DNA from: Desulfatiglandales bacterium | Lineage (GTDB): Bacteria > Desulfobacterota > DSM-4660 > Desulfatiglandales > HGW-15 | DNA: 64,000 nt | Assembly (NCBI GenBank): GCA_963665715.2 | Contig: CAXXPR010000001.1 | Location: 868,550 to 932,549 of the forward strand | Reading direction: 5' to 3' | Shown here: one piece after another, positions 2,854 through 61,000 of the stretch | How positions within the stretch are numbered: the first letter of the stretch is position 1 | How the letters are laid out: the number at the start of each line of letters is the position of its first letter | Position numbers and translations under genes: made by a program | Notes under the pieces: generated by a model | The model's database searches: none | What the model was told of the DNA's origin: nothing | Seen by the model: only the letters and a program-made list of their open reading frames with translations

Positions 2854-3726
2854 TTAAAGTCCTGTAATTTTACCGGCCAGTATTGCGTCCATGACCTTTA
2901 CTGTTTCCATTGCCATTTTTACATTATGAACTCTTACAATATGTGCTCCGTTCATTATGCCTGCCGCTACAGTAGCCATGGTGCCTGTGTCTCTGTTTTC
3001 GGGCTCCTTGTCCAGTATTTTCCCTATGAAGGTCTTTCTGGATGAACCGAGGAGCAGCGGGAGCCCCAGGCTTTCAAATTCCTTAAGGTCCCTTAAAATT
3101 TCAAGATTGTGATCTGCTGTTTTACCGAATCCTATCCCCGGATCAAGGATGAGCTTTTCCTTTGCAATTCCACCTGCTTCTGCCCTGCTTACGGCCTCAT
3201 TAAAGAAGCTTTTCATTTCACCCATCAGGTCATCATATACCGGGTTATTCTGCATGTCTTTAGGTGTACCCTTTATATGCATCAGTATTACCGGTACATC
3301 TGTTTTTTTTGCAACCGAAACCATATTGCTGTCAAAACTCAGGGCGCTGATATCATTTATAATAGCAGCTCCGGCATCAATTGCCGCTTCTGCCACCTCT
3401 GACTTGTAGGTATCTATGCTGATAGGTGTTTTGACGATTTTGCTTAATTTTTCGATAACCGGCACAACCCGGTCAAGTTCCTGTTCCAGGGTTACTTCAT
3501 CTGCATAGGGCCTTGTTGATTCGCCGCCGATATCAATTATATCGGCGCCGTCTGCTTCCATTGCAAGGGCCTGCTCAACTGCCCTGTCCATTGAGAAATA
3601 ATTTCCTCCGTCCGAAAAGGAGTCCGGGGTTACATTAAGTATCCCCATCACAAGCGTTTTTTCTCCCATATCAAGGGAGTAGCCGCCCCAGTCCAGACGG
3701 AAGCGCTTTCTTTGAAGATCAGCCAA
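2854..3726 (-). CDS. folP: Dihydropteroate synthase
   Basis: 290 aa with the MGILNVTPDSFSDGG and DIGGESTRP signatures. A TTG start directly abuts the ftsH stop, the usual ftsH-folP arrangement. Confidence 0.9.
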   Translation of the reverse strand: MADLQRKRFRLDWGGYSLDMGEKTLVMGILNVTPDSFSDGGNYFSMDRAVEQALAMEADGADIIDIGGESTRPYADEVTLEQELDRVVPVIEKLSKIVKTPISIDTYKSEVAEAAIDAGAAIINDISALSFDSNMVSVAKKTDVPVILMHIKGTPKDMQNNPVYDDLMGEMKSFFNEAVSRAEAGGIAKEKLILDPGIGFGKTADHNLEILRDLKEFESLGLPLLLGSSRKTFIGKILDKEPENRDTGTMATVAAGIMNGAHIVRVHNVKMAMETVKVMDAILAGKITGL

Positions 3727-43990: not shown

Positions 43991-44449
43991 TTATTTCTGC
44001 TCACCGGGAAGCTGTTTTCCCTGGCAGTCAGGGCAGATTCCAAAAAAATCCAGGCGGTGACTTGTTATTTTGAATCCTGTCTCATCAACCAGTTCGGCTG
44101 AAATATCTTTAAGGCTGTCGAGATCAGGATCAATTATTTTTTTGCAAACAGTGCAAATCAGGTGTGGATGGGGATCGGGTTTATTTCCGTCATATCTGCT
44201 GCTTTCCGTCCCAAAGCCAAGTTCAAGAACTTCTCCAAGCTCCTTGAGCATTGAAATGTTTTTATAAACGGTTGCAAGGCTTGTTGTCGGGAATTCCTCT
44301 TTGACCTGTTCATAAATACTTTCAACACTGGGGTGTCCTTCACTTTTAGACAGGACGCCCAGAATAGCAATACGCTGGGGTGTTATTCTGCATCCCTTTT
44401 CCCGCATTTTTTGAATCATTGTTTCAAGACGTATTTTATGATCGGTCAT
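43991..44449 (-). CDS. perR: Fur-family transcriptional regulator, PerR-like
   Basis: 152 aa with a winged helix (CRITPQRIAIL) and HPHLICTVCKKIID plus CPDC zinc/regulatory sites. It is colinear with B. subtilis PerR as recalled. It lies directly upstream of katG on the same strand. Confidence 0.75.
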   Translation of the reverse strand: MTDHKIRLETMIQKMREKGCRITPQRIAILGVLSKSEGHPSVESIYEQVKEEFPTTSLATVYKNISMLKELGEVLELGFGTESSRYDGNKPDPHPHLICTVCKKIIDPDLDSLKDISAELVDETGFKITSHRLDFFGICPDCQGKQLPGEQK

Positions 44450-44504
44450 AATACCGAAAATATACTCCTTTTATTAAAATACGTAAAGAGATAATAATTC
44501 CTAC

Positions 44505-44519
44505 CTGATAATTGTTATC
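44505..44519. promoter_or_regulatory. Fur-family 7-1-7 operator box upstream of perR
   Basis: TGATAATTGTTATCA matches the classical TGATAATnATTATCA at 14 of 15 positions. It is 56 nt upstream of the perR start, in the divergent region shared with the first giant gene. Confidence 0.6.
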
Positions 44520-44777
44520 AATAATAATTGGCTTTAATACTGAAGTCAATAACTTCTATGTCAGAAAATTAATTAAAAGAGTTAATTTAATTTATTAAAT
44601 AATAAAAAAAGGCCGATAGAAACCCTGTAAAGATTTCCTGCCACAGGTGCGTCCTGAAATTGGAATTGGTCAGTTTAAATAAATATAAATCGATTAAAGC
44701 TAATTAACAATAATCGGTTAAGCTGACAGGGTTAAGTTGATACTGTTACTATTGATTTTGAATTATCTGGAGGATGT

Positions 44778-47700
44778 ATGGCGAAAAAAAGAAAAAGCAC
44801 GTCTGATAAAAAAAACAGCACATTAAAAAGAACAAATAAGCTTAGATTAGCTCTGGAACCCAGAATCCTGTATGATGCTTCAGGCCTTGCTGCAGGGCTT
44901 GATATAATATCAGATGGAACGGATATCGGAGATCATGCACTGGATAATGCAGATCAGGCAGATACTGTTGAATCCTCCATTTCTATTGACAGTATAAGCG
45001 AATTTATTCCTCCTGCCGTCCAGAATGTGGATGAAATAGTTTTTGTGGATCCCGGTGTAAGAGATTATTCTGAACTCATAAAAAATATTGATTCCGATGC
45101 AACTGTAATAGTGCTGGATCCGGATAAAGACGGTATAAGCCAGATAACAGATATATTAAGCGGATATGAAAATATATCATCCGTTCACATCCTTTCCCAT
45201 GGTAATGAAGCCGGCATTAACCTTGGTTCTGTAGAATTTAACAGCGATGTTATTGATTTTTACAGCAGTTCCCTTAAGGAATGGAAAAACTCTCTTACCG
45301 AAGATGCTGATATCCTGATATACGGCTGTGATGTCGCAAAGGGCGAAGAAGGAAGCGCTTTTATATCAAAAATAGCTGATCTTACCGGTGCCGATATAGC
45401 CGCTTCCACTGATACAACGGGAATAGAAAGGCTTGGAGGGGACTGGGATCTGGAATATCAGACCGGTGATATCGAGGCTGACACACCCTTTGATCCTTAC
45501 GATATTGAAGCATATGATGATGTGCTTGCAGGTCTGGAATATGCCGATTTAAACAACTGGACAGCAGAAGGTGATTCCAGTGCTGACTGGGAAATTGAAG
45601 AAGGGGGAAGAACAGTCGTACAGCACTATAACGGAAGCGCAATGTTTTTTCTTTCGGATGATGCTGCCGCAGTTGATATAGCCATACAGGGAACCCTTCT
45701 CCAGAGTGACACTGATTTTACCACCAATTATTCCGGCGACGGGGACATTATGGGATACGTCTTCGGATATCAGGATTCAAGCAATTACTATGTTTTTGAA
45801 TGGTCCGGTCCGGATTCAGATAATGATATGTATCTCTATAAAGTGACGAACGGAAGTAAAACCATTCTGGATGAATATCATGATCTTGAATGGACCAAAG
45901 ATGTCACCTATGATGTCCGGATACTTTATATGTCCAATACTATTAAAGTTTCGGTAGATGGGGTTAATTACCTTGAAGCATCAGGAACTTTTGCAGCAGG
46001 AAAATTCGGATTTTATAATTATTCCCAGGGCGCTGTACAGTATGGAAATGTCAGGACCGCACCGGGTTCACTGGTCGAAGTCGTTCCTGAAGTAAGTAAT
46101 GATACCTATGGAGTAGATGAAAACACCACGATTAATATCGATCGTTTCAGCGGGCTATTGAGTAATGACTATGATCCGAATCTTGATGTTTTTACTCTTA
46201 CAGTAAACGGAACACTCCTTAACACAGATGATGCATCAACAACATTCGATACAGCCCACGGCCAGGCCACAGTCTATGGTGACGGTCATTTTTCATATAC
46301 TCCGGATAATGATTATACAGGATCGGACACCTTTATATACTATCTTACTGATGATGACGGCAATTCCTATGATGCCACGGTAACTCTTAATATAATGGAG
46401 CCCAATGTGGCTCCAACCGATATAACCATAGACTGTAATACTGTAGAAAGCGGAGTCTCAGACGGAACAGTAATAGGGGCTCTTTCCACGACAGATGGAA
46501 ATACAGATGATGCCCATGATTATATGCTCATAGATAATTCCGGGGGACGTTTCGGGATCAGCGGAAACAATATTACCGTTGCAGACGGATCGCTTATATC
46601 GGAAGGCTCCTATAATATTACGGTCCGTACAACAGACCTCAGGGGTCTTTCATATGATGAAGTAATTACAATAGAGGTGGCTGACGGTGCTCCGACCATA
46701 ACAACCACCGACAGCAGTTCGGTGTGGATAGAAGACGGAGCCGCAGTAATAATTGCACCTGATCTGACCATAACTGATGCGGGCGGCGAAAACATTGAAA
46801 GTGCGAAGGTCACAATCAATAATAAAATAAATGGTGATATACTGTCATTTATCGATCAGAACGGCATTACTGGTGATTATGACAGCTCAACAGGCGTGCT
46901 CACTCTTACGGGTTCTGCATCGATTTCCAGTTATCAGACTGCATTAAGGAGTATTACCTTTAAAAGCTCTGTAGATGAAGTTGATACAACTTCAAGAGAC
47001 ATATCCTTTACAATCGGAAGCGCAATATCCAGTTCCGATACCGGTCACTATTATGAATACATAGACGGCACCTACACATGGAGTGAAGCAAAGGCTGCAG
47101 CAGAGGCAAGGACTCTTTACGGTCTTCAGGGATATCTTGCAACAATAACCTCTCTGGAAGAAAATACATATATACAGGAGAAACTTCAGGCTGATGCATG
47201 GATCGGTGCGTCAGATCAGGATACCGAGGGTGTATGGAAGTGGGTCACAGGACCTGAAGCCGGCACGATTTTTTACATGGATCCGGATAACTTTGCTGAA
47301 AATTCCGGAACTGTTACCTGGGACTACTGGAACTCGGGTGAGCCCAATGATTCTGACGGAAATGAACATTATGCCGAAATATATTCTTCAGGATCAAACC
47401 CCGGTATGTGGAATGATCTTCCTGACTCCTGGGAATTGGGTTATGTAGTGGAATACGGCGGAACTGCGGGTGATCCGGTTCTTCAATTAACCGCAACTAA
47501 AACCGTAAATATTCTATCCTCAAATGATGCCCCTGTACTCAGCGGACTAACATCAAAAACTGTAGATGAAAATGCTGCAGCATCGGTTATTGATGCGGAC
47601 ATTACTTTTTCCGATGTGGATTCCTCTGATCTGGACGGCGGAACAGTAACTGTATCCGGCCTTGATGCAGAAGATATTGTATCAATTGCATCCGGGGTCA

Positions 47701-50700
47701 GCCATTCAGCCGGAGCTGTTCAGCGATCAGGTAATGAGGTACAGATCTCTGACGGTTCATCATGGACAACTATAGGAACAATAGGCACGGATGCAGATGA
47801 GACAGGCGCCGGAGAAACACTTGTTATTACACTCAACAGCAATGCGGATCCGGCAAATGTTGATGCCCTGCTTCAGTCACTTACCTTTTATAACAATGAT
47901 GACACTCCTGCAACAGCCCGTACCCTGAGTATAACTGTAACGGACGGCGACGGCGGCACAACCGGCGCGCAGAATGTTTCCATTTCCATCACACCTGCCA
48001 ATGATGCCCCTTCAGTGGAAACACCGGGCACCATAACCATAACGGATACAGACTCGGCAAATATTTACGGGGATATAACCGGTACAGTAAATGCCTCTGA
48101 CGCAGAAGGCTCTTCCCTGATATACGGTCTGGATGCCGGAGTTGTATCAGGAGGTTTCAGTATACTGGCAGGAACCTACGGTACACTTACAATAGATACG
48201 GCAACCGGTGATTATGTTTACACCCCGGACAATGATGCTGTAAACGGTCTTGATTCGGGTATAACAGAAACCTTTACTGCAACTGTAAGTGACGGCAGTG
48301 TTTCATCAAATACAACCATTACGGTAGATATCAATGCTGTGCCCGAAAGTGTGCAGGGATATGTTGAACAGGACTCTGCCATAACACCTTTAATCAATGC
48401 AACCATAACCACCGAAGGTGATGTATCCTATTCCGGCGGTTACATGGATTTTGAGGTAAACGATTCCGAAAGCAGTGAAACAATAGGCCTTATAAGGTCC
48501 GATACAGCTTCAATAGTAAACGGTGCGGTAACAATAGTAGGAAACGCAGTGTACCTGGGAGACGGAACTACAGCAAAGGTTATAGGAAGTGTAGACGGAA
48601 CCCTGAATGGCGAAAACGGCCAGAAGCTGCGTATAAATTTCAGTGTTGATTTCGAAAACGGAGATTTTGAAGTCGGCGCTAACGGTGATTTAACGGTAGT
48701 TGGCTGGACCATAGTAAATGACAGGGTAATCTTCGGGCAGGATCAGATAGCAGGGCAGGATACTCCAATAGATGCAACTTATCCTGCTAATAATCTTGCC
48801 AAAACGGTAAATGACAACGGTGAGCTTGAATTTCCTGACGGCATAAAAGATATAGGCAACCTTGATAGCGAGAGTTATTCAACAACAGTAATATCGGGAG
48901 CAGAAGCCAACGGTGGAACCGGAAATTCCATAAAGATGAACAGTAACCTTAATTCTGCTGACGGATATGAAGTCATCAGGGGACCTTATATTTACAGTAA
49001 CGGTACGGTTGCTCTTGAAGCCGGAGACTCCGTTTCCTTTTACTGGAAAGCAGAAGGCGGAGGTGACGCCTATGATGTATACGGGTATATAGTAAATGTA
49101 AATACAGGTGAGACCCAGGTCATTCTGGACGAAACGGGAAGCAGCACCTCTGCCACTACAAACTGGGCGCAGGAATCCGTTTCTGTAGCAAATGCAGGGG
49201 AGTACAGGTTTGTTTTTGTTTCCGGTTCCTATGATTATTCTGGCGGCGAAGCTATGGGCGCCCAGCTTTATATAGATGATGTACAGGTAACCCAGGCGAA
49301 TCCTCCGGACGGTGTTTCAGGAGATGCCCTTGAGCAGATAGCAAAACTTGTCACCTATGAAAACAGTTCCGATCTGACTGCAGCCAACGGTACAATAAGC
49401 AAAACAATGACTGTTACAGCCGTTCAGGCCGATAATACATCGGGCAGTTCAGCCCAGGCTATTGAGATAACAGAGGTAAATGATGTACCTTCTGTGGTTA
49501 CACCATCCGTTATTACCATTACAGATACAGATTCAGCCAATATTTTCGGCGATATAACCGGCACAGTAAATGCTTCTGATTTAGATGCAGGCACAGTCCT
49601 TACATACGGGCTGGACAGCGGGACAGTGTCAGAGGGGTACAGTACCCTTACAGGAACATACGGAACTCTTTCAATAAACACTGCTACCGGTGAATATGTG
49701 TATACACCGGATAGTGACGGCATAAACGCTTTGTCATCAGACGCAAATGATCTTTTTACAGTAACGGTCAGTGACGGTACTGCCACTTCAACTACAACCC
49801 TTACGGTAGATATAGACGCCGTGCCTGAAAGTGTTCAGAGTTATGTGGAGCAGGACCCGGCCATAACGCCTCTGAGTAATTCGAGCATAACAGCAGAAAG
49901 CAGCGTGTCCTATTCGGGCGGTTATATGGATTTTGAGGTGAGTGATTCCGAAAGCGGTGAAACAATAGGTCTTATAAGATCCGATACAGCCTCAATAGTA
50001 AACGGCATGGTAAGTATAGTAGGAAACGCCGTGTACCTGGGAGACGGAACCACAGCAAAGGTTATAGGAAGTGTAGACGGAACCCTGAATGGAGAAAACG
50101 GCCAGAAGCTGCGTATAAACTTCAGTGTTGATTTTGAAAACGGAGATTTTGAAGTCGGTTCTAACGGAGATTTAACGGTAGTTGGCTGGACCATAGTAAA
50201 TGACAGGGTAATCTTCGGGCAGGATCAGATAGCAGGACAGGATACTCCAATAGATTCTACATATCCTGCTTATAACGGCACTCTGGAAGACAGCAGCGGC
50301 GGCAGCGGAAGTTATGATACAACGGTTATATCAGGCGCCGAGGCAAACGGTGGTACCGGTAACTCCATAAGAATGCACAGTTCCCTGCATTCAAACAGCG
50401 GATACGCAGTAATGAGAGGGCCATACATATACAGTAACGGTACAGTTGCTCTTGAAGCCGGAGATTCCGTCTCATTTTACTGGAAGGCAGAGGGCGGGAG
50501 TGATGCCTATGATGTTTACGGATATATAGTAAATGTCAACACCGGTGAAGTTCAGGTTATTCTTGATGAAACAGGCGGCAGTACATATGCTACCACAAAC
50601 TGGGCACAGGAATCCATCAGTGTTGCAAGCGCCGGTGAATACAGGTTTGTGTTTGTGTCGGGTTCATATGATTACACCGGCGGCAGGGCCCTGGGTGCAC

Positions 50701-53700
50701 AGCTTTATATTGATGATGTACAGGTAACTCAGGCAAATCCTCCGGACGGTGTTTCAGGAGATGCACTTGAGCAGATAGCAAAACTTGTTACCTATGAAAA
50801 CAGTTCCGACCTGTCTGCCGCTAACGGCACAATAAGCAAAACAATGACCGTGACGACAGTTCAGGCGGATAATACGTCAGCCTCTTCAACCCAGGCAATT
50901 GAGATAACCGAGGTAAATGATGTTCCGGTTATTGAGGGTATAAATATTACATATACTGATTCAGGGGCAGCGGATAATTTTGCGTCATCAACAGGAACGC
51001 TTAATGCTTCCGATGTGGACAGCGGAACAGTGCTTACCTATGATATATCAGGCGGAACTGATAATGGTGACGGTACGGTCAGCATAATCGGAAGCTACGG
51101 TACCCTGACACTTAATCAGACCACAGGGGCTTATGAGTATACACCGGATGATTCAGCCATTAACCTTTTGAACACAGACGCATCCGACACATTTACCCTG
51201 AGTGTAAGTGACGGTGAAGCTGTTGTGACAGAAACATTCACGGTAAATGCAGCCGGTATAAATGAAACTCCGGTTATAACCACAGGCAGTGCCTCAAACA
51301 CAATCCAGGAAGATACTTCCCTTGTATTCGGTATAAACGGTGATAACAGTATAAGCCTTGATGATCTGGATGCAGCTCCGGACGAAGAGCTTGTCATATC
51401 ATTGAATGTTGGAAACGGAACAGTAATCCTGGGCAGTACAACCGGGATAACTGTTACCGGCGGAGCTGACAGTTCAGGCAGCATAGAGATAAAAGGCACT
51501 CTTACCAATCTTAATGCAGCCCTTGAGGGACTGACCTACAGACCGGGAACTAATTACAACGGCAGTGATATTCTTACCATAACTGTTGATGACAGATTCA
51601 ATACAGGAAACGGCAGTGCGGAAACAGTTATAAAAACAGTAGACATTACCGTAGACGCGGTAAATGATATTCCTGTTCTTGACACTCCTGATACTGTAAA
51701 TATTACAGATACATCATCTGCAGATATCTTTGGAGATATTACCGGAACTGCGTCTGCCTCTGATGTTGATGCCGGTACTACACTTGTTTACGGTCTGGAC
51801 GGCGGAGTTATATCCGGCGGGTATTCTTCTGTAACAGGGGCCTACGGAACCATTACAATTAATACGGCAACAGGTGAGTATGTATTTTCACCTGATAATG
51901 AAGCTGTAAACAATCTTGATGCCGGATCCTCTGAGACATTCGCAGTTACTGTAACTGACGGTGATGCCTCGGTAAGTAAAAATATTACCATTAATATACA
52001 GGCAATGGCGGAAAGTGCCTCTGAATACACGGAGCAGGGCGATGCAGTAACACCGCTCAGCAATGTGACAATCAATACCGAAAGCGGTACCAGCTACGCA
52101 GGCGGTTATGTAGACTTCGAGGTAAGCGGATCGGAAAGCTCCGAAACCCTGGGACTTGTAAGATCGGATACAGCATCTGTTGAAGCGGGTGTAGTGACTA
52201 TAGTTGGTAATACCGTGTATCTTGGAGGTGGAACAAACGCCGAAGTAATAGGGTCGGTTGACAGCCTCTACAACGGGGAAAACGGCCAGAAGCTTCGCAT
52301 CAAATTTACCACTGAGTTTGAAAACGGCAATTTTGAACAGGGATCTGCCGGGGATATAACAGTAACCGGCTGGACCATGGTAAATGAGCGTGTAGTATTT
52401 GGACAGGACCAGATAGCAGGGCAGGATACACCCGCAGATTCGACCTATCCGGTACAGAATCTTAACAAAACCGTTAATGATTCAGGCCAGCTTGAGTTTC
52501 CTGACGGTATACAGGATGCAGGAAATGTAGATTATGCAGCATACACATCATCTGTGGTATCGGGAAGCGTTGCAAACGGCGGAACCGGTAATGCAATAGA
52601 GATGAGAAGCTCGCTCAATTCTGCAGACGGTTATGAAGTAATAAGAGGACCATATATATACAGTAACGGTACAGTAGCCCTTGAAGCAGGGGATCAGGTG
52701 TCTTTTTACTGGAAAGCTGAAGGCGGAAGCGATGCCTATGACGTATATGGTTATATAATAGACGTAAACACCGGTGCTATCCAGACAATACTTGATGATA
52801 CAGCGCCAAATGCCAGAACCAATACACCATGGACTCAGGAGTCAGTTACTGTCTCATCTTCCGGCGAATACAGGTTTGTATTTGTGTCAGGATCATTTGA
52901 TGCCACAGGCGGCGAAGCCATGGGTGCACAGCTTTATATAGATGATGTTGAAGTAACACAGGCCAATCCTCCTGACAGTGTGACAGGTAATGCCCTTCAG
53001 CAGATAGCCCGTCTTGTGACCTATGAAAACAGTTCTGATCTGACTGCTGCAAACGGTACAATAAATAAAGCAATAACAGTAACGGCTGTACAGGCTGATA
53101 ATACGGCGGACAGCGCAGTGCAGTCCCTGGAGATAACGGAAGTAAACGATGCACCGGTACTCGATGCTCCGGGTACTGTCTATTATACTGATACTGACGG
53201 TTCGGATTCCTTTGCTTCTTCAACAGGTGTTCTTAGCGCGTCAGATGCTGACAGTGGAACAGTCATTACATACGGAATAACAGACGGTACTGATAACGGT
53301 GACGGAACAGAAAGTATAACAGGGTCATACGGTACTCTGACATTAAACACTTCCACAGGCGCATGGGAGTTTACTCCGGATGATGCGGCTATAAATGCTC
53401 TTACCAGTAATGTAACAGAGACATTTACCTTAAGCGCAGGTGACGGAGAGACTTCAGACAGTCAGACTCTTACAATAGATATATCCTCTGTAAATGATGC
53501 ACCGCTCCTTGGCGGTAATGCTTCAACCGTAACCTTTATTGAAAACGGTTCAGCTGTACAGATAGACCCGACCATAAGCATAACCGACTTTGAAGGAACA
53601 AGTTATGATACAGGTCATGTGACCTTTTCAACGGTTGTAAACGGAGAGTCGAGCGACAGCTTTGTAATAAAGAATGTCGGCGGGATTACGGTTTCCGGAA

Positions 53701-56700
53701 ATGAAGTCAGTTACGGCGGGATGGTAATCGGAACCATAGACAGTGACTATAACGGTGAAAATGGATCAGATCTGAGAATAAATCTTAATTCAAATGCTTA
53801 TTCTCCACAGGTAGAAGCTCTTGCAAGGGCAGTTGCCTTTGTGAACAGTGCTGATGATCTTTCCGATGCATCCAGAACGGTAAGTATACAGGTAAATGAC
53901 GGCGGCAACGGCGGTGAATCAACAGCAAGATACAGCACAAAGAGCGCCACTGTTCAGGTGAACGAAATAAACGATATCCCTGTTATAGATACCGGTGATT
54001 CTCTTCTTGCAACTGAAAAAGTGATCGGCACAAACCCTGACGGAAGTTTTGTAATAGAAGGCCTTTCTGTTTCAGATGCAGATAACGGTATTGTTACGGT
54101 TGTATTTTCCACAAGCAATGCCGGTAACGGAAGTTATGCAGCGCTTACCTTAAGTACTGCTGTTGAAGGAGGAATCACGGAAGGCGACATAACGGGCAAC
54201 GGTACAGGTGAAGTAACCGTAACAGCATCTGTTGATGCAATCAATGCAACCCTTGCAGCAGTTAACGGTCTTACATACTCAGCCGGGGCAGGCAATGATT
54301 TTGTTGCTCCTGGACCTGACACCCTTACCATAACCGCCTCGGATGCAGAGTCAGGAAGTTCTGTATCACAGCAGCAGGTGATTGTAATGCCTGCAGTACC
54401 AAATGCAGACAGCGACAACATGGCTTCCAGGGAAGATACCATTGCAGTTATAGATCTCGGGGGGCTTGTAACGGATATCAATGATAACGGAGGCACATAC
54501 GTATTCGGTACCGGTACTCCTGATGACTCTGACGGAAACGGCGGAAGCCTTACACCTTTCAGCGGAAACGAGATCTACTCTGAGTATGATCTTAACAATG
54601 ACGGCGTTGCCGGAAACGATGTAATAGGTTACAGGCTTGAACATGGAGAGATACGGCTTACTGATGCAACAAAATATATAGGCGAAGGTCAGGACTTTGC
54701 AGAATTTACATTCACTCCTGATGAAAACTGGTCCGGAGTACAGACTTTTCTTTACCAGTATACATCAGGGGGCAGCCAGTCCAGCTATATCGCCCAGATA
54801 GCCTTTTATGTGGCCCCGGTAAATGATGCGCCTGTTGTCAATATTGACAGCTCATCAGGCGCTATAAATGAAGACGGGTCCCTGGTGTTTGGAGACGGCG
54901 GCAGTAATTTTCTTTCTTTTACTGATGTGGATGCAGAAAGTGATGACCTGCTGGACCTGAGCCTTAGTGTTGAAAACGGGACTATTAACCTTGCTTCAAC
55001 AGCCGGTCTTACCTTTTTGAGCGGTTCTGACGGAACTGGGCGTATGGTCATAAGAGGAACACTTGCTGATCTTACAGCTGCAACCGAAGGTTTTACCTAT
55101 AATGCCAACAGTGATTTTAACGGTACGGATACTCTTGATATTACCCTTAATGACGGCGGTAATTCAGGAAGCGGCGGCGCTCTTTCTTACAGTCAGAGTG
55201 TAGATATTTCAATCAGCGCGGTTGATGATGCTCCGGATATATCAAGCAGCATACCTGATATAAACGTGAGCGAGGATGCTGAAAATGTCACCATTGATCT
55301 TACCAGTGTTTTTACGGATCGTGACAATGATGATGCTTTTATTGAAAAGACAATCTTTTCAAACAGCAACCCGGAACTTGCCGGTGTTACCATCAATGGT
55401 AACATACTTACCATTGACCCCAATGCAGACATCCACGGCAGTGCTACTATAGTTTTAAGGGGAACTTCAAACGGACAGACTGTTGATGAGACCTTTACAA
55501 TAAATGTGGCTCCTGTAAATGACACGCCTGTTGTTAATGATTTCAGTTTTGAGGTTGATGAGGATACTCCCTGTGCTATCGACGGATGGGAGTTCTCTGA
55601 TCCGCAGGAGATGACTGCTGACACCCCGGATTTTATAACAATCCTTAATATAGATGATCTTAACGGTACTCTTAAGCTGAACAATGAAATTCTTGAATCA
55701 GGTTCAACTGTAGCATGGGAAGACAGGAATGATATAATCTTCCTTGGTGACTATGATTACTACGGCAATGCCTCCTTTACATACAGTGTAACGGACAGGG
55801 CGGATATAAATCCGGGCACAGCCCTTACAAGTGAAATAAAGACTGTAACTATCAACGTAAGGCCGGTTGAAGACCCGGTTATAGGTGAAGAAACTGACGC
55901 TCCGTCCGGAGAGGAAAGTGACGGATCCGATGCAGCGCCGGTTGACTCAGGTTCCAACGGTACGGATCTTATTACTCTGCCGGAAAATCAGTCGGGCGGT
56001 GAAAACTCAGGCAGCGGAACTGATCTTATAACCGGAAGCGACGATTCAGGTGACAGCGGTTATGATATGGGATCGGACTCAGATACAGGTTTTGATAACG
56101 GATTCGATTCAGGATTTGGTGACTATGATACCGGCTCTGATTATACCGGTGATGATTCATTCTATGATTCAGGATCAGGCGCGGGAGAAAGCGGCTACTC
56201 TTCCGGCTCCGCTGCCGACACAGATACCGGATATGATGCAGGCAGTTCTGACGGATATTCCGACACCGGTTCTGAAGGAGGAGATACCTCATTTGATTCA
56301 GGAGATTCAACCGGTTTAGGTACTGAATCTTCCGGTGAAGGTTCAGGATCTTCATTCCAGTCTGAAGAAGGCGATATGGGGTCAGATGCTGGCTATGAGA
56401 CCGGCGATTCCGATGGATATTCCGATACCGGTTCTGAAGGAGGAGATACCTCATTTGATTCAGGAGATTCAACAGGTTTAGGTGCTGAATCTTCCGGTGA
56501 TGGTTCAGGGTCTTCATTCCAGTCTGAAGAAGGCGGTATGAGTTCAGATTCAGGCTATGAGGCCGGCGATTCAGACGGATATTCCGATGCAGGAACTGAA
56601 GACGGAGATACCTCATTCGGTTCAGGTGATTCGAGTGAATCAGGTGTGGAATCCTCCGGCGATGATTCAGGGTCTTCATTTCAGTCTGGTGAAAGCAGCG

Positions 56701-57587
56701 GCGCAGGAACAGGCGATTCTGCCTCGGGTTTGACCGATAATGGTTCTGATGGAGAAGGTACTTCCTTCGAAGCCGGTGATTCAGGTGCAGATAACGGGAC
56801 AGACTCTTCTGCTGGAGACACAGCCGCAGAAGGCAGTGATGACGGATCAGAAGTAGCGGAACCGGCTGATGATTCCGGCGAGGGAGATTCAGACTCTTCG
56901 GGCAGCGGAGCTCAGGGCGGTTTTCAGGCTGATGGAAACGGTTCAGGTGAAAATGATACGTCTTCTTCCTCCGGAACAGGATTGTCAGGAGGCTCTGATT
57001 CGGACGATTCAGCTTCATCCAGTATAGAGGTTGATTCGGGAATCAATGATGTGTTTATCCCAAAGGGAGAGACTGCAAGCATAGTTATCCCTGAAGATGC
57101 CTTTCTGGTACAGGGAAATTCAGATGAAGTGACATTTGAAGCAACCCTGTCCGATGGAACCGCGCTTCCTGAATGGATAGAATTTGATCCTGGCACCGGT
57201 AATTTTACTATCAATGCCAGCGGGCAGAATATTAATACAGATACAATAGATATCAGCGTAACAGCCCTCGATAAACAGGGAAACAGCGCAACTACAATAT
57301 TCAGAATCGTAATTGACGGTGATGGGGCCGAATCAGGTGATTCTGCTGATCCGGGAGTTGATGCCGAAGATCAGGACACAGGAAGCGAAAGCCTTGAACT
57401 TTCTTCAATTTCGGACAGGATCGGCGGTTCAGTACTGGGAATGGCCCTTGCAGGAAGCCTTGCAGTTAAAAAAGGTATGAAAACCGGTAAGGAGCAGCAG
57501 AAAGAAAATACAGGTTTTTCCGATCAGATTATTAAAGCTGCCTCAAGGTTTGAGAATGAATGCAGAAATTTTATTAATCGTATCTAA
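44778..57587 (+). CDS. Giant (4269 aa) multidomain adhesin-like protein. Domain order: DUF4347, ConA-like/TSP-C-like, cadherin-like, C-type lectin, VCBS-like, CBM-like supermodules, acidic repeats, CADG-like domain, C-terminal hydrophobic segment
   Basis: Single uninterrupted 12.8-kb ORF with RBS GGAGG 6 nt before the ATG. All antisense ORFs inside it are low-complexity shadows. Domain motifs were read directly from the translation (see sub-features). There is no N-terminal signal peptide; the N-terminus is a basic leader followed by [13 protein letters not shown]. Confidence 0.9.
   Translation: [4269 protein letters not shown]
45033..45479 (+). other. DUF4347-type N-terminal domain of giant protein 1
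   Basis: EIVFVD...[14 protein letters not shown]...[15 protein letters not shown]...[38 protein letters not shown]...GGDWDLEY. This pattern is what I recall for DUF4347, found at the N-terminus of very large cadherin/VCBS/RTX-type proteins. Confidence 0.65.
45550..46057 (+). other. Concanavalin-A-like lectin/LamG-fold domain with a thrombospondin C-terminal-like motif
   Basis: NNWTAEG...[12 protein letters not shown]...[25 protein letters not shown]...YDVRILY...IKVSVDG...[19 protein letters not shown]. The core resembles the thrombospondin C-terminal signature DDDYAGFVFGYQ...FYVVMWK as I recall it. Confidence 0.5.
46100..46685 (+). other. Two cadherin-like / bacterial Ig-like repeats
   Basis: First repeat: [14 protein letters not shown]...[11 protein letters not shown]...[37 protein letters not shown]. 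Second repeat: [29 protein letters not shown]...[12 protein letters not shown]...[21 protein letters not shown]. Confidence 0.6.
47043..47462 (+). other. C-type lectin-like domain (cysteine-free, EPN + WND motifs intact)
   Basis: [72 protein letters not shown]...[18 protein letters not shown]...MWNDL...YVVEYGG. The EPN codons are at 47340-47348 and the WND codons at 47408-47416. Confidence 0.75.
48648..49296 (+). other. CBM4_9-like jelly-roll module 1 (gene 1)
   Basis: It begins FENGDFEVG...GWTIVN and ends [10 protein letters not shown]...[13 protein letters not shown]. An NGxFE start and YIDDV end are typical of carbohydrate-binding jelly rolls. Assigned by eye. Confidence 0.45.
50131..50733 (+). 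other. CBM4_9-like jelly-roll module 2 (gene 1)
   Basis: Same motifs as module 1: [23 protein letters not shown] ... [13 protein letters not shown]. Confidence 0.45.
51658..53145 (+). repeat. Third, more diverged copy of the supermodule (gene 1), including jelly-roll module 3 at about 52317-52961
   Basis: Colinear with the units at 47998-50913: [46 protein letters not shown]...[28 protein letters not shown]. Confidence 0.8.
55880..57020 (+). other. Extremely acidic Ser/Gly/Asp/Glu-rich low-complexity region
   Basis: The translation is dominated by D, E, S, G, T and Y with essentially no basic residues (for example [41 protein letters not shown]). Confidence 0.9.
56250..56735 (+). repeat. 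Three tandem 162-bp (54-codon) repeats inside the acidic region
   Basis: Copies begin with GA(C/T)GGATATTCCGA at 56250, 56412 and 56574. The peptide unit is [45 protein letters not shown].GDS. Confidence 0.9.
57021..57315 (+). other. Dystroglycan-type cadherin-like (CADG / putative Ig, He_PIG-like) domain
   Basis: [56 protein letters not shown]...[23 protein letters not shown]. The LPxWIxFDxxTGxF motif is typical of this family. Confidence 0.6.
57420..57467 (+). other. C-terminal hydrophobic Gly/Ala-rich segment followed by a basic tail (possible membrane anchor or sorting signal)
   Basis: [16 protein letters not shown] is followed by [13 protein letters not shown] and a 27-residue tail. 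It is the only hydrophobic stretch I saw in the C-terminal region. Confidence 0.4.
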
Positions 57588-57635
57588 AAAATTACAGAAA
57601 ATATAAATAGCTGTAATATATTAAAGCATATAAAG

Positions 57636-57674
57636 ATCCCCTGTTTTAGGTTTGAAAACACTAATTCAGGGGAT
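57636..57674 (+). terminator. Weak candidate terminator hairpin after giant gene 1
   Basis: ATCCCCTG ... CAGGGGAT is an 8-bp stem with a long loop carrying its own TGTTTT/AAAACA pairing. It lies about 50 nt after the stop and has no clear T-tract. Confidence 0.3.
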
Positions 57675-57961
57675 ATTAATATCAAGTAATTTAAAATATC
57701 TTGTGTCAAAATACCGGCCTTAACAACTCAGCATTTTTTTTAAAATAGACTATTTAGAAAATTTTACTATTTCCTAAAATTTACAGTATGTTCCGATTTA
57801 TAGGAAAAAACCTTCATATTAATTTGTGCTAATAATTTAAAAACAATTAAATTTGTCAGTAAAATTGCCGATGTAGAGCTGTAGGCCGTTTTTTCGGCAG
57901 AGGTGTGTCTGGGGCGTTTAAGGCGAATCATTAGCTTCAATGTTTAAAGTAAATAATTAAT

Positions 57962-57977
57962 TGGCTTAATAATTGCA
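57962..57977 (+). promoter_or_regulatory. Candidate sigma-54 -24/-12 element upstream of giant gene 2
   Basis: TGGCTT-AATAA-TTGCA has the exact GG/GC spacing of TGGCAC-N5-TTGCW. It is 73 nt before the ATG at 58050. The aligned position upstream of gene 1 does not keep the motif, so confidence is low. Confidence 0.3.
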
Positions 57978-58049
57978 GGATTAAGTTAAGTTATTTTTAT
58001 ATCGTTTAAATAATTTAAAGAATTAGTTTTAAAGTTATCAGGAGGATGT

Positions 58050-61000
58050 ATGGGAAAAAATAGAAAGAAAAAGTCTGATAAAAAAAACAGTAAGTTAACC
58101 CGAACTAACAAACTGCAGTTAGCTCTGGAACCAAGAATTTTATATGATGCTTCGGGTCTTGCTGCCGGGCTGGATATATTATCAGACGGAGAGGATGTCG
58201 GTGATCATGCACTTGACAGTACCGACTCAACAGATACTGCTGAATCCTCTATTTCTATTGACAGTATAAGCGGATTTATTCCTCCTGCTGTTCAGGATGT
58301 TGATGAAATTATATTTGTTGATACAAACGTAAGAGATTACAATGCCTTAATCGAAAACATATCTACAGATGCAAGGATAATTGTCCTTGATCCGGACCAG
58401 AATGGAATAGAGCAGATTACGGGCATTCTTTCCGGGTATCAGGATCTTGATGCTGTTCATATCATTTCACACGGAACAGAAGGTCAGATTGTTCTGAGTT
58501 CAGCAGAACTGAATATTGATAATATAGATTCATACAGTCAGCAGTTGTCTCAATGGTCAAAGAGTCTGTCTGCAGATGCAGATATACTTGTATACGGATG
58601 TGATGTTGCAGGAAATGAGCAGGGGCGTGACCTCCTTTCCTCAATTTCGGATCTTACCGGGGCTGATGTTGCAGCGTCGGATGATGCTACAGGTTCGGAT
58701 GATCTTTCTGCCGACTGGGACCTTGAAGTCAGGACAGGTGATATCGAAGCCATTCCGCTGGCAGTAGAAGGTTATAATGATATTCTGGGTGTGCCGTCAA
58801 TTTCAAATCTTGGCAATGCAAGTTATACGGAAAATGATTCTCCTGTGGTTATTGACAGTGATGTGACCTTTTCCAACGGAACCAGTTATTCGGGCGGGTA
58901 TGTAGAGTTTGAACTGACAAACGGTCTGGCCGAAGATAATTTAGGCCTTGTCTATGACAGCAGTATTTCTACAGTAAACGGAGACCTCTCCATTGTTGAC
59001 GGTACAGTTTACCTCGGTAACGGGAGCGATGCAGCGGTTGTTGGAAGTGTTGATGCCACCTATAACGGCCTTAATGGACAGAAGCTTCGAATAAATTTTT
59101 CAAACGAGTTTGAAAATGGAGATTTCAGTGAAGGTTCATCCGGAAGTACCATAATTACAGGCTGGACAGCTGTAAACGCCCAGGTGAAATTTGGGACAGA
59201 TACCATAGCCGGTCTCCCGACTCCTGTTGATACTGTGTGGCCTACAAACTGGTCCGGCACCTATACTGACCAGAATACACCTACTAATCCCGGTACAATG
59301 ACGACAGTATTAAGCGATGTACAGAATGACGGCGCCGGATATTCCGTTCAGATGAAAAGCGCGTCTATGACTACCTATGCAGGGTATGATATTGTACGCG
59401 GCCCATACATATACAGTAACGGCACTGTTTCTCTTTCTGCCAACGACACTGTTTCATTTGAATGGCAGGCCCAGGGCGGAGGAGACGCCTATGATGTATA
59501 CGGATATATTGTTGATGTTAATACCGGGCATATAGAGACTATCCTTAATGAAACAGGGACAAGCACAAGTGCATCAACAACATGGGCAACAGAAACCATA
59601 ACAGTATCACAGGCCGGTCAGTACAAATTTGTGTTTGTATCCGGTACCTATGATTATTCAGGTGGAAAAGCAGCCGGTGCTCAGCTCTATATAGATGACG
59701 TTACTGTTACGCAGGCAGTTGTAGCTGCAACAGTGAATGATTCACATCTCTCAGAAATAGCCAGTCGTGTTACCTATGAAAACACATCGGAAAGTCCCAG
59801 CACAACTACCCGCACTTATCAGATAACAGCAATAAGCGGAACCGGCGATACAGGTACTGCTTCATCCAGTATTTCGGTTATATCGGTTGAAGACGCACCG
59901 GTTATTACAACTACAGGCGGTAATTCAAGCTGGACAGAAGATGGATCCGCTATTGTAATTGATTCAGGCCTAACAATTACCGATGTTGACGGCGGAAATA
60001 TAGACAGCGCAAAGGTTGCAATAAATAATGTAATTGAAGGAGATATTTTATCGTTTGTAAATCAGAATGGCATTACCGGTGACTATGACAGCTCAACAGG
60101 AATTCTCACTCTCACAGGCTCAGCAACTGTAGCCAATTACCAGACAGCATTAAGGAGCGTGACATTTTCGAGTTCTGTTGACGAAGTCAATACAACCGCA
60201 AGAGAAATATCATTTACAATTGGAAGTGCTATTACAAACAGTGAAACCGGTCATTACTATGAATATATTGACGGAGACTATACCTGGACTCAGGCTAGGG
60301 ATGCGGCTGCTGCCAGAACCCTGTACGGCCTTCAGGGATACCTTGCAACAGTTACTTCACTTGCGGAAAATTCCTACATTGAAGATAAGCTGCAGGCGGA
60401 TGCATGGATAGGAGCTGCGGATACAGGAGTGGAAGGCACCTGGAAATGGGTTACAGGTCCGGAAAACGGTACAACTTTTTATACTGATCCTGATAACGGC
60501 GGAAGCGGAACCGTAACCTGGTCCAACTGGAACGATGGTGAGCCAAATGACTCCGGCAGCGCTGAAGATTATGCCGAGATTTATTCAACCAATAACGGTT
60601 TATGGAATGACCTGGGCGCCTCAAGCCAGCTAGGTTACGTGGTGGAATACGGCGGAATGGTAGGCGACCCTGTTCTTCAGCTCACTGCAAGTAAAACGGT
60701 AAATATATTGCCTAATAATGATAACCCGGTTCTCACAGGGCTGACTGCAAAGACGGTTGAGGAAAATGCGGATGCATCAATAATAGATAGTGATGTAACC
60801 CTGTCGGATATTGATTCTTCGGATTTCAGCGGCGGAACAATAACGGTGTCAGGCCTTGATTCAGAAGATACCGTATCAATATCTGCAGATACTTCTCACG
60901 GTGTCAACGCTATAAGACGTTCTGGTAACGATGTCCAGATATCAGACGGAACTGTCTGGACTACCATAGGAACAATAGGCACAGGGGCAGGCCAGACAGG

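Follow-up and report, generated by a model that had tools for sequence, protein, structure and literature searches.

Cysteine-free C-type lectin-like domains with a conserved EPN/WND site, predicted to be nested in the stalk repeat of two giant proteins of a Desulfatiglandales bacterium

C-type lectins are usually regarded as a disulfide-dependent animal innovation. In reviews, the bacterial C-type lectin-like domains (CTLDs) of intimin and invasin are described as compact, without the long loop, Ca2+ site 2, or sugar binding. Ca2+-dependent recognition of terminal sugars with broad specificity was reported for MpPA14 and MhPA14, which are part of very long repetitive RTX adhesins (PMC6650083, PMC8092209). 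Here, we describe three CTLDs without cysteine, encoded by two genes for predicted giant proteins in a 64,000-nucleotide (nt) stretch of Desulfatiglandales DNA (contig CAXXPR010000001.1, positions 868,550 to 932,549 of the forward strand). This whole stretch is called the window below. Taking all parts of the statement together, we consider it probable that the three segments are canonical (long-loop) CTLDs of a large prokaryotic subfamily, with all four Cys residues replaced, every ligand of Ca2+ site 2 kept, and the domain nested in a stalk repeat as a likely Ca2+-dependent lectin head.

According to the list of open reading frames (ORFs), their translations, and Pfam, gene 1 (44778-57587, + strand) encodes a predicted giant surface protein of 4269 amino acids (aa). 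Gene 2 (58050-64000, + strand), which extends past the window end, encodes at least 1983 aa of a predicted giant protein with DUF4347 and two CTLDs. A six-frame scan of the window with a hidden Markov model (HMM) of the family found exactly three CTLD copies, at 47043-47468, 60249-60662, and 61554-61985 (E values of 5e-52 to 5e-53). The same three had been listed in a preliminary description made from the letters of the window, and their in-frame translations match it. Copy 1 spans 47043-47462 (gene 1 aa 756-895), copy 2 spans 60249-60655 (gene 2 aa 734-869), and copy 3 spans 61554-61978 (gene 2 aa 1169-1310), all on the + strand. WIGA is encoded at 47199-47210, 60405-60416, and 61716-61727, and EPN at 47340-47348, 60540-60548, and 61857-61865, respectively. 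The β3 Glu is part of EHYAEI in copies 1 and 3 (47364-47381 and 61881-61898) and of EDYAEI in copy 2 (60564-60581). WND follows at 47409-47417, 60603-60611, and 61926-61934. WIGA, GPE, EPN, and E(H/D)YAEI were located by script in all three copies, as was WND in copies 1 and 3. The WND of copy 2 was counted by hand in the translation, where an earlier WND (60528-60536) sits inside NWNDGEPN. Thus, every copy carries the motifs originally ascribed to it; in copy 3, EPN precedes N, not D. The copies are 69-79% identical pairwise at the protein level and 62-80% at the DNA level, indicating old paralogues.

The Pfam profile PF00059 (Lectin_C), which had been proposed as a check, matched copies 1 to 3 with 39.0, 42.7, and 38.9 bits, compared with a gathering score of 22.6. 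With E values of 1e-9 to 1e-10 and scores above the cutoff, the match is far past chance, and it persisted when the full proteins were scanned. The WIGL-type core motif reads WIGA in all three copies. Among 60 aligned homologues, W173 is invariant, position 174 is Ile, Leu, or Met, and G175 is present in 59. The four Cys residues that form the two classical disulfides (α1-β5 and β3-post-β4 loop) are missing, since each copy has 0 Cys.

When PDB was searched with phmmer, CLEC4F, Endo180, Mincle, MBP-A/C, DC-SIGN(R), aggrecan, and langerin were matched with E values of 2e-8 to 1e-3; SP-D was a further sequence match. HMMER aligned YWNSGEPNDSDGNEHYAEIYSSGSNPGMWNDLPD to Mincle without gaps; for SP-D and langerin, the alignment has short gaps that lie between the Glu and WND. 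In this register with the animal carbohydrate-recognition domains (CRDs), the EPN and WND motifs coincide with their animal counterparts, and the Glu of EHY takes the place of the Glu in EDC. Tyr stands where the β3 Cys would be, confirming the exchange of E-D-C for E-H-Y, and Asp where the post-WND Cys would be. The α1 Cys corresponds to Tyr and the β5 Cys to Val, as seen in the CLEC4F and family alignments. The family shows the same pattern: the equivalents of the first to fourth Cys are Tyr or Phe (55/60), Val (57/60), Tyr (54/60), and Asn or Asp (36/60). EPN (E220/P221/N222), the β3 Glu (E228), W243, N244, and D245 are each kept in 58 to 60 of the 60 homologues. The placement of EPN and WND at Ca2+ site 2 is supported both by the register with Mincle, SP-D, and langerin and by five ligand positions that are invariant or nearly so.

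An AlphaFold2 model was calculated for gene 1 aa 636-925, comprising host module and CTLD, using the alignment of the 60 homologues. The mean predicted local distance difference test score (pLDDT) was 94.7 and the predicted template modeling score (pTM) was 0.90. The model shows the CTLD fold: it has helices at 133-142 and 158-168, and its strand order is canonical. According to DSSP, β3 starts directly after the conserved Glu and WND lies within β4, as in canonical CRDs. In a Foldseek search of PDB, the top 50 matches were all animal Ca2+/sugar CRDs (E of about 1e-8, TM-score by target length of 0.64-0.87, root mean square deviation of 2.2-4.7 Å, probability of 1.00). They included CEL-I, CL-K1, Mincle, SP-D, CD23, MGL, DC-SIGN, mannose-binding protein (MBP), and snake galactose lectins, and their identity to the window domain was 17-28%. 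The suggested superposition on MBP was thus successful. No prokaryotic structure was among the best 60 of 70 PDB sequence matches or the top 50 fold matches; all were animal. PDB entry 9kpl is a vertebrate Mincle homologue. We conclude that the three segments are almost certainly genuine CTLDs. By HMM and predicted fold, they belong to the CTLDs, yet they lie outside the classical C-type CRD signature (Drickamer).

To place the domains in their family, homologues were searched with a 290-aa query consisting of the preceding module, the CTLD, and the tail, which gave 632 matches. The majority of the best 120 align over 79-99% of the query with 36-47% identity, and the others match a shorter part. 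Named sources are Maribacter, Muriicola, Flavobacterium, Olleya, Flavisolibacter, Rhodospirillaceae, Nibricoccus, Ilumatobacteraceae, Nostoc, and Methanomethylovorans. These 120 matches contain 101 full domains, 70 of them Cys-free; EPN is found in 94, QPD in 4, and WND in 98. In a scan of species-representative genomes (one per species), the number of confirmed stretches was at least 596. Represented among the best 80 are Proteobacteria, Cyanobacteria, Planctomycetota, Myxococcota, Firmicutes, Bacteroidota, Chloroflexota, Deinococcaceae, Acidobacteriota, Cloacimonadota, Ignavibacteriota, and the haloarchaeon Natrarchaeobius, more than 10 phyla overall. Among 83 full domains from these 80 loci, 64 are Cys-free, 69 have EPN, 3 have QPD, and 76 have WND.

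Lack of Cys is the norm in this prokaryotic family, which is large and already annotated, and near-absence of Cys also characterizes the host proteins along their full length. The two giants of the window contain 5 Cys in 6252 residues (0.08%; 4/4269 in gene 1 and 1/1983 in gene 2) versus 0.89% in 32 neighboring ORFs, an approximately 11-fold depletion. Cys184, common to both giants, lies within DUF4347. The preliminary description had presented the window copies as a disulfide-independent variant with a functional-looking site. HMM, fold, and ligands agree with this, but the variant is not special to the window. Pfam recognizes the domain and NCBI names the family, so that this is a known but unstudied kind of domain, of which the window copies are new members. 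In a limited literature search, we found no paper characterizing a canonical prokaryotic CTLD. A minority of homologous prokaryotic CTLDs retain 2-5 Cys. QPD is present in 2 of the 60 aligned homologues, and the E-to-Q and N-to-D changes are always paired. The QPD carriers and the carriers of 2-5 Cys offer natural reference groups against which specificity and stability could be compared.

Each CTLD is preceded by a module of about 117 aa (originally estimated at about 110) and followed by one of about 160 aa that ends in (I/L)(S/N)ITVTDGDGG, as previously noted. Iterated jackhmmer searches within both proteins showed that these modules are paralogues of one stalk module with NDAP-type linkers at its bounds. 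When the CTLD was excised in a MAFFT alignment, the preceding module plus the 25 residues past the CTLD (…GDPVLQLTATKTVNILSSNDAP) aligned end to end with uninterrupted modules, namely gene 1 aa 2162-2303, 2906-3072, and 3349-3489 and the three post-CTLD modules. The CTLD insertion point corresponds to the short DG(D/G)GG… loop between the last two strands of the uninterrupted modules. The segment past the CTLD matches their last strand and NDAP linker. In copy 1 it reads TAGDPVLQLTATKTVNILSSNDAP and returns the chain to the stalk; its strand at aa 905-913 has a pLDDT of about 96. The motif GG..GDP.L.I of this closing strand is conserved in homologues. The excision alignment, the confident closing strand, and the pTM of 0.90 together suggest that the CTLD is very likely nested in the last hairpin of the stalk repeat. 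Such nesting is topologically easy because the CTLD termini are adjacent.

The N-terminal part of the host module was delimited in copy 1 by homology to uninterrupted modules at 46683-47033 (gene 1 aa 636-752). It ends in the strand RDISFTI, and its strands have pLDDT values above 90. The corresponding parts are at 59889-60239 (gene 2 aa 614-730) for copy 2, as delimited by jackhmmer and MAFFT, and at 61194-61544 (gene 2 aa 1049-1165) for copy 3. The closing strands lie at 47463-47537 (gene 1 aa 896-920), 60657-60731 (gene 2 aa 870-894), and 61980-62054 (gene 2 aa 1311-1335). The uninterrupted modules that follow are at 47523-48014 (gene 1 aa 916-1079, ending LSITVTDGDGG…NDAP; jackhmmer and MAFFT), 60717-61205 (gene 2 aa 890-1052), and 62040-62534 (gene 2 aa 1331-1495). 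All these features are on the + strand.

The three parts had been described as a conserved cassette. This holds for the three copies of the window, where the parts correspond to a CTLD nested in one module and then an uninterrupted paralogue, but such an arrangement is rare elsewhere. At the 80 foreign loci, the host module was found directly before the CTLD in 60/83 cases, the closing motif in 67/83, and a stalk-type module afterwards in 3/73; these counts were obtained with small HMMs and are lower bounds. Thus, the following module is a lineage-specific neighbor. The unit conserved across phyla consists of host module, CTLD, and closing strand (GG..GDP.L.I…).

The stalk module of about 140-165 aa has further examples at 51261-51686, 53493-53993, and 54822-55244. 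It matched no Pfam family, and a PDB profile search was also without significant match. At E≤1e-3, the profile of the unit matched 39,874 cluster representatives, and at E≤1e-30 it still matched 5,554. The top matches are proteins of 2,000-7,500 aa with up to 44 stretches matching the stalk part of the profile. The module looks like an abundant adhesin repeat outside Pfam coverage, and the nested layout shows how a common stalk repeat without a Pfam model displays payload domains.

A second nested insert of about 190-220 aa is present in five copies on the + strand (48672-49325, 50154-50762, 52338-52991, 59127-59696, and 63189-63836). It is characterized by FENGDFE…GWT.VN…RGPYIYSNGTV…DAYDVYGY…GAQLYIDDV and occupies another site of the same stalk module, between the QKLRINF strand and the helix. 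Searches of Pfam and of PDB profiles gave nothing significant. With the five paralogues as alignment, AlphaFold2 reached a pLDDT of 48.6, which is unusable; the secondary structure was mostly β-strand. The second insert is possibly another ligand-binding payload.

We compared the window CTLDs with the known systems. With the animal mannose-type CRDs (MBP-A/C, SP-D, Mincle, DC-SIGN/DC-SIGNR, langerin, CL-K1, and CEL-I), they have in common the Pfam family, the long-loop fold, WIG, EPN, the β3 Glu, and the WND register. Ca2+-mediated binding of sugars with equatorial 3- and 4-OH groups is presumed to be common to both. In contrast to these CRDs, the window CTLDs lack both disulfides, are only distantly similar (17-28% identity), and have about 17 extra long-loop residues relative to MBP-A. 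Moreover, the animal CRDs end a coiled-coil neck or a type II membrane stalk, whereas the window CTLDs appear nested in a bacterial stalk repeat. The annotated prokaryotic relatives belong to the same family, have host module, CTLD, and closing strand as one unit, and are mostly Cys-free with EPN and WND. Among the matches listed, where lengths are apparently held to about 507 aa, they are mostly shorter and have type IX secretion system (T9SS) or immunoglobulin (Ig)-like tails. The window differs from them in having the unit up to twice per DUF4347-headed giant, with an uninterrupted stalk module afterwards.

Like intimin and invasin, the window proteins have the CTLD fold on a predicted bacterial surface adhesin; in intimin and invasin it is located at the tip. 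Unlike in those proteins, the CTLDs of the window have the long loop with a full EPN/WND site and are not of the compact type. The PA14 domains of RTX adhesins may be viewed as functional analogues with an unrelated fold. RTX adhesins have RTX repeats and a type I secretion system (T1SS) signal, neither of which was seen here, with the C-terminus of gene 2 lying outside the window. An analogy to split domains of RTX adhesins is conceivable; the MpIBP paper contains no text on split or inserted domains.

Based on the conserved residues, we consider Ca2+-dependent sugar binding by the window CTLDs likely. Ca2+ would be held by Glu and Asn of EPN, the β3 Glu, and Asn and Asp of WND. The bound Ca2+ would then ligate two adjacent equatorial hydroxyls of a terminal sugar of the mannose (Man), glucose (Glc), or N-acetylglucosamine (GlcNAc) type, or possibly fucose, as in collectins, Mincle, and DC-SIGN. 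The CTLD would project laterally from a rod formed by a giant surface protein that has almost no Cys. The outcome would be low-affinity multivalent attachment to polysaccharide of other cells, to the cell's own matrix, or to particles. The missing disulfides would suit export followed by extracellular folding in the absence of thiol oxidation. Aromatic and aliphatic (Tyr/Val) packing where the Cys residues used to be could provide stability, together with the host module, which would tether both CTLD termini. Functionally, the domain is most likely a Man/Glc/GlcNAc-type lectin head on a giant adhesin.

In mutagenesis of MBP-A by Drickamer, the change from EPN to QPD reportedly switched specificity from mannose to galactose. 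The paired E-to-Q and N-to-D change in the family mirrors this switch, suggesting that the site is under selection as a sugar site. In our view, the coupled QPD variants are the best available sign of sugar use at the site. In other proteins, homologous units are accompanied by T9SS sorting domains, CHU_C, fn3, CUB, and Ig-like domains, and the window hosts have DUF4347, cadherin-like, and He_PIG domains. These partners point to an extracellular setting of the unit.

Several points weigh against a surface-exposed lectin. Retention of the auxiliary Ca2+ site 1 is partial: position 223 is Asn in 35/60 and Asp in 16/60 homologues, and position 229 is Asp in 32/60, His in 13/60 (as in copies 1 and 3), and Asn in 11/60. 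The spatial arrangement of the five ligands was deduced from alignment, DSSP, and model confidence, as was the way in which the closing strand pairs with the host sheet. The loop between WKWVTGPE and EPN, which is about 17 residues longer than in MBP-A, could reshape or occlude the sugar site, and model confidence is lowest at its tip (pLDDT of 78). No binding data for any family member were found in the literature. Regarding export and surface location, DUF4347 is uncharacterized in the literature that mentions it, and no hydrophobic signal peptide was seen in the translated N-termini of both giants. Pfam detected no RTX/HemolysinCabind repeats in gene 1 (the C-terminus of gene 2 is outside the window), and no T1SS component was found among the scanned window ORFs. 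Regarding expression, there were no RNA runs among the sequencing runs looked up.

We also considered that the fold and the Ca2+ site are real but serve a noncarbohydrate ligand, which could be ice, a protein partner, or the surface of a mineral or metal sulfide. The same face is reused by snaclecs, type II antifreeze proteins, and other CTLDs, and the PDB matches include type II antifreeze proteins (2zib and 2afp) and snake-venom CTLDs. The family-specific insertion of about 17 residues in the long-loop region would be compatible with such a ligand, and for a host that is probably a sediment or marine anaerobe, attachment to particles would be relevant. However, nonsugar CTLDs usually lose EPN and WND, whereas here the five ligands show little or no variation across phyla. 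The coupled exchange of EPN for QPD, which is typical of sugar specificity, is the only change that recurs. We therefore regard a noncarbohydrate ligand as unlikely. The same QPD variants, which make sense only for ligand specificity, speak against a purely structural Ca2+ domain that stiffens or spaces the stalk without any ligand, like the Ca2+ linkers of cadherin-like repeats. The giants are rich in NDAP-type Ca2+ linker motifs and the ligand of the CTLDs is not known, which would fit such a role. Yet a 140-aa globular domain jutting sideways would be an odd rod stiffener, and the second, unrelated insert in the same stalk module is suggestive of payload display, making a structural role quite unlikely.

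Two other explanations concern the origin of the copies. Lectin_C is best known from Metazoa, and the solved relatives among the listed matches are all animal, as would be expected for eukaryotic contamination or a very recent transfer from an animal. The copies, however, are inside long bacterial ORFs near BamA, LpxB, LolCE, Fur, and KatG, and the GC content is even across the window (41-46%). In Logan short-read contigs from two public runs, 44500-48599 and 56444-62912 were matched with zero mismatches, so that all three copies were independently assembled and are no assembly artifact. Together with the at least 596 prokaryotic stretches across many phyla and the identity of just 17-28% to animal CRDs, this led us to reject contamination, and such an animal origin is highly improbable. 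The other explanation is that the CTLDs are variable targets of a diversity-generating retroelement (DGR), since related multicellular Desulfobacterota were reported to use DGRs on proteins with the C-type lectin (CLec) fold. The DGR proteins Mtd and TvpA resemble the window CTLDs in the broad CLec superfold and in being bacterial surface or receptor proteins. They form a separate branch, lack the EPN/WND Ca2+ site, and are diversified by a retroelement, whereas the window shows no DGR signature. The match of the copies is to canonical Lectin_C and not to the FGE/DGR-type CLec fold, and Pfam and NCBIfam scans of the neighboring ORFs returned no reverse transcriptase. No near-identical pair of template and variable repeat is present in 44000-64000, where the copies are 62-80% identical at the DNA level. 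We therefore rejected the DGR explanation, whose probability is close to negligible.

Thus, a Ca2+-dependent lectin head is the interpretation that we prefer. If the site works, the domain would be a disulfide-free lectin scaffold that is expressible in E. coli and has a natural EPN/QPD specificity switch. In sulfate-reducer relatives, whose giant adhesins otherwise lack annotation, it would also pinpoint the heads that bind the ligand, and it would bear on the origin of the metazoan CTLD. A bolder proposal is that the Cys-free EPN/WND CTLD nested in a stalk repeat represents an ancient lineage of functional Ca2+-dependent lectins that extends throughout the prokaryotes, with more than 10 bacterial phyla and some archaea, and is the possible source of the metazoan CTLD. 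We consider this doubtful. If true, it would contradict the textbook view of bacterial CTLDs as compact nonlectins only, mean that the CTLD sugar site needs no disulfides, and allow that the lineage is the source, not a derivative, of the metazoan C-type lectin domain. Taken alone, the window has an ordinary, database-annotatable domain, and the notable features are family-wide rather than locus-specific. Those of possible specialist interest are the lack of disulfides, the conserved sugar site with QPD variants, and the nesting in a stalk repeat.

The domain layout of gene 1 comprises N-terminal DUF4347, a TSP_C-like domain, cadherin-like (Cadherin_4)/Big_9 repeats, and stalk modules with nested inserts and one CTLD; toward the C-terminus, it has an acidic low-complexity region, a He_PIG Ig domain, and a hydrophobic stretch. 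The TSP_C domain (45579-45809, aa 268-344) scored above the Pfam threshold (39.9 bits, sub-fragment); for the portion of gene 2 inside the window, Pfam returned no TSP_C match. Translation and Pfam show that both giants begin with a basic N-terminus, a LEPRILYDAS motif, and DUF4347. A DNA repeat comparison of 44000-64000 revealed that the N-terminus and 5' leader of gene 2 are paralogous to those of gene 1. The stretches 44756-45055 and 58028-58327, which span the start codon and include 22 nt of leader, are 79% identical.

The neighbors upstream encode Fur, KatG, a σ54 response regulator, CheA, CheW, and MCP, as found by Pfam scans of the ORFs. Other window genes, found by Pfam and NCBIfam scans, encode BamA, LolCE, LpxB, FtsH, and LysS, which places the window in the chromosome of a diderm. 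For LysS, identity to database proteins reaches at most 90%, and the named ones among these are from Desulfobacteraceae, Deltaproteobacteria, and Thermodesulfobacteriota metagenome-assembled genomes. One marine metagenome contains 22% of the sampled window words. We take the host to be a marine diderm related to the Desulfobacteraceae, probably a sediment or marine anaerobe.

The short-read contigs break repeatedly within the gene 1 repeats (48600-56440), with gaps at approximately 48600-48724, 50082-50206, and 56295-56443, and loose contig ends are found at 51411, 53590, and 55550. Repeat order and number in this part of gene 1 therefore rest on the source assembly alone; the CTLD regions are unaffected. 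The C-terminal part of gene 1 (55875-57587) consists, in this order, of the acidic Ser/Gly/Asp-rich low-complexity region, the He_PIG Ig domain, the hydrophobic stretch IGGSVLGMALAGSLAV, and a basic tail of about 45 aa. Its sequence is more suggestive of a C-terminal membrane anchor than of an RTX/T1SS signal. The acidic region holds three tandem 162-nt repeats at 56221-56706. Long antisense ORFs at the C-terminus of gene 1 (e.g., 56026-57018, minus strand) are probably artifacts of the repeat composition.

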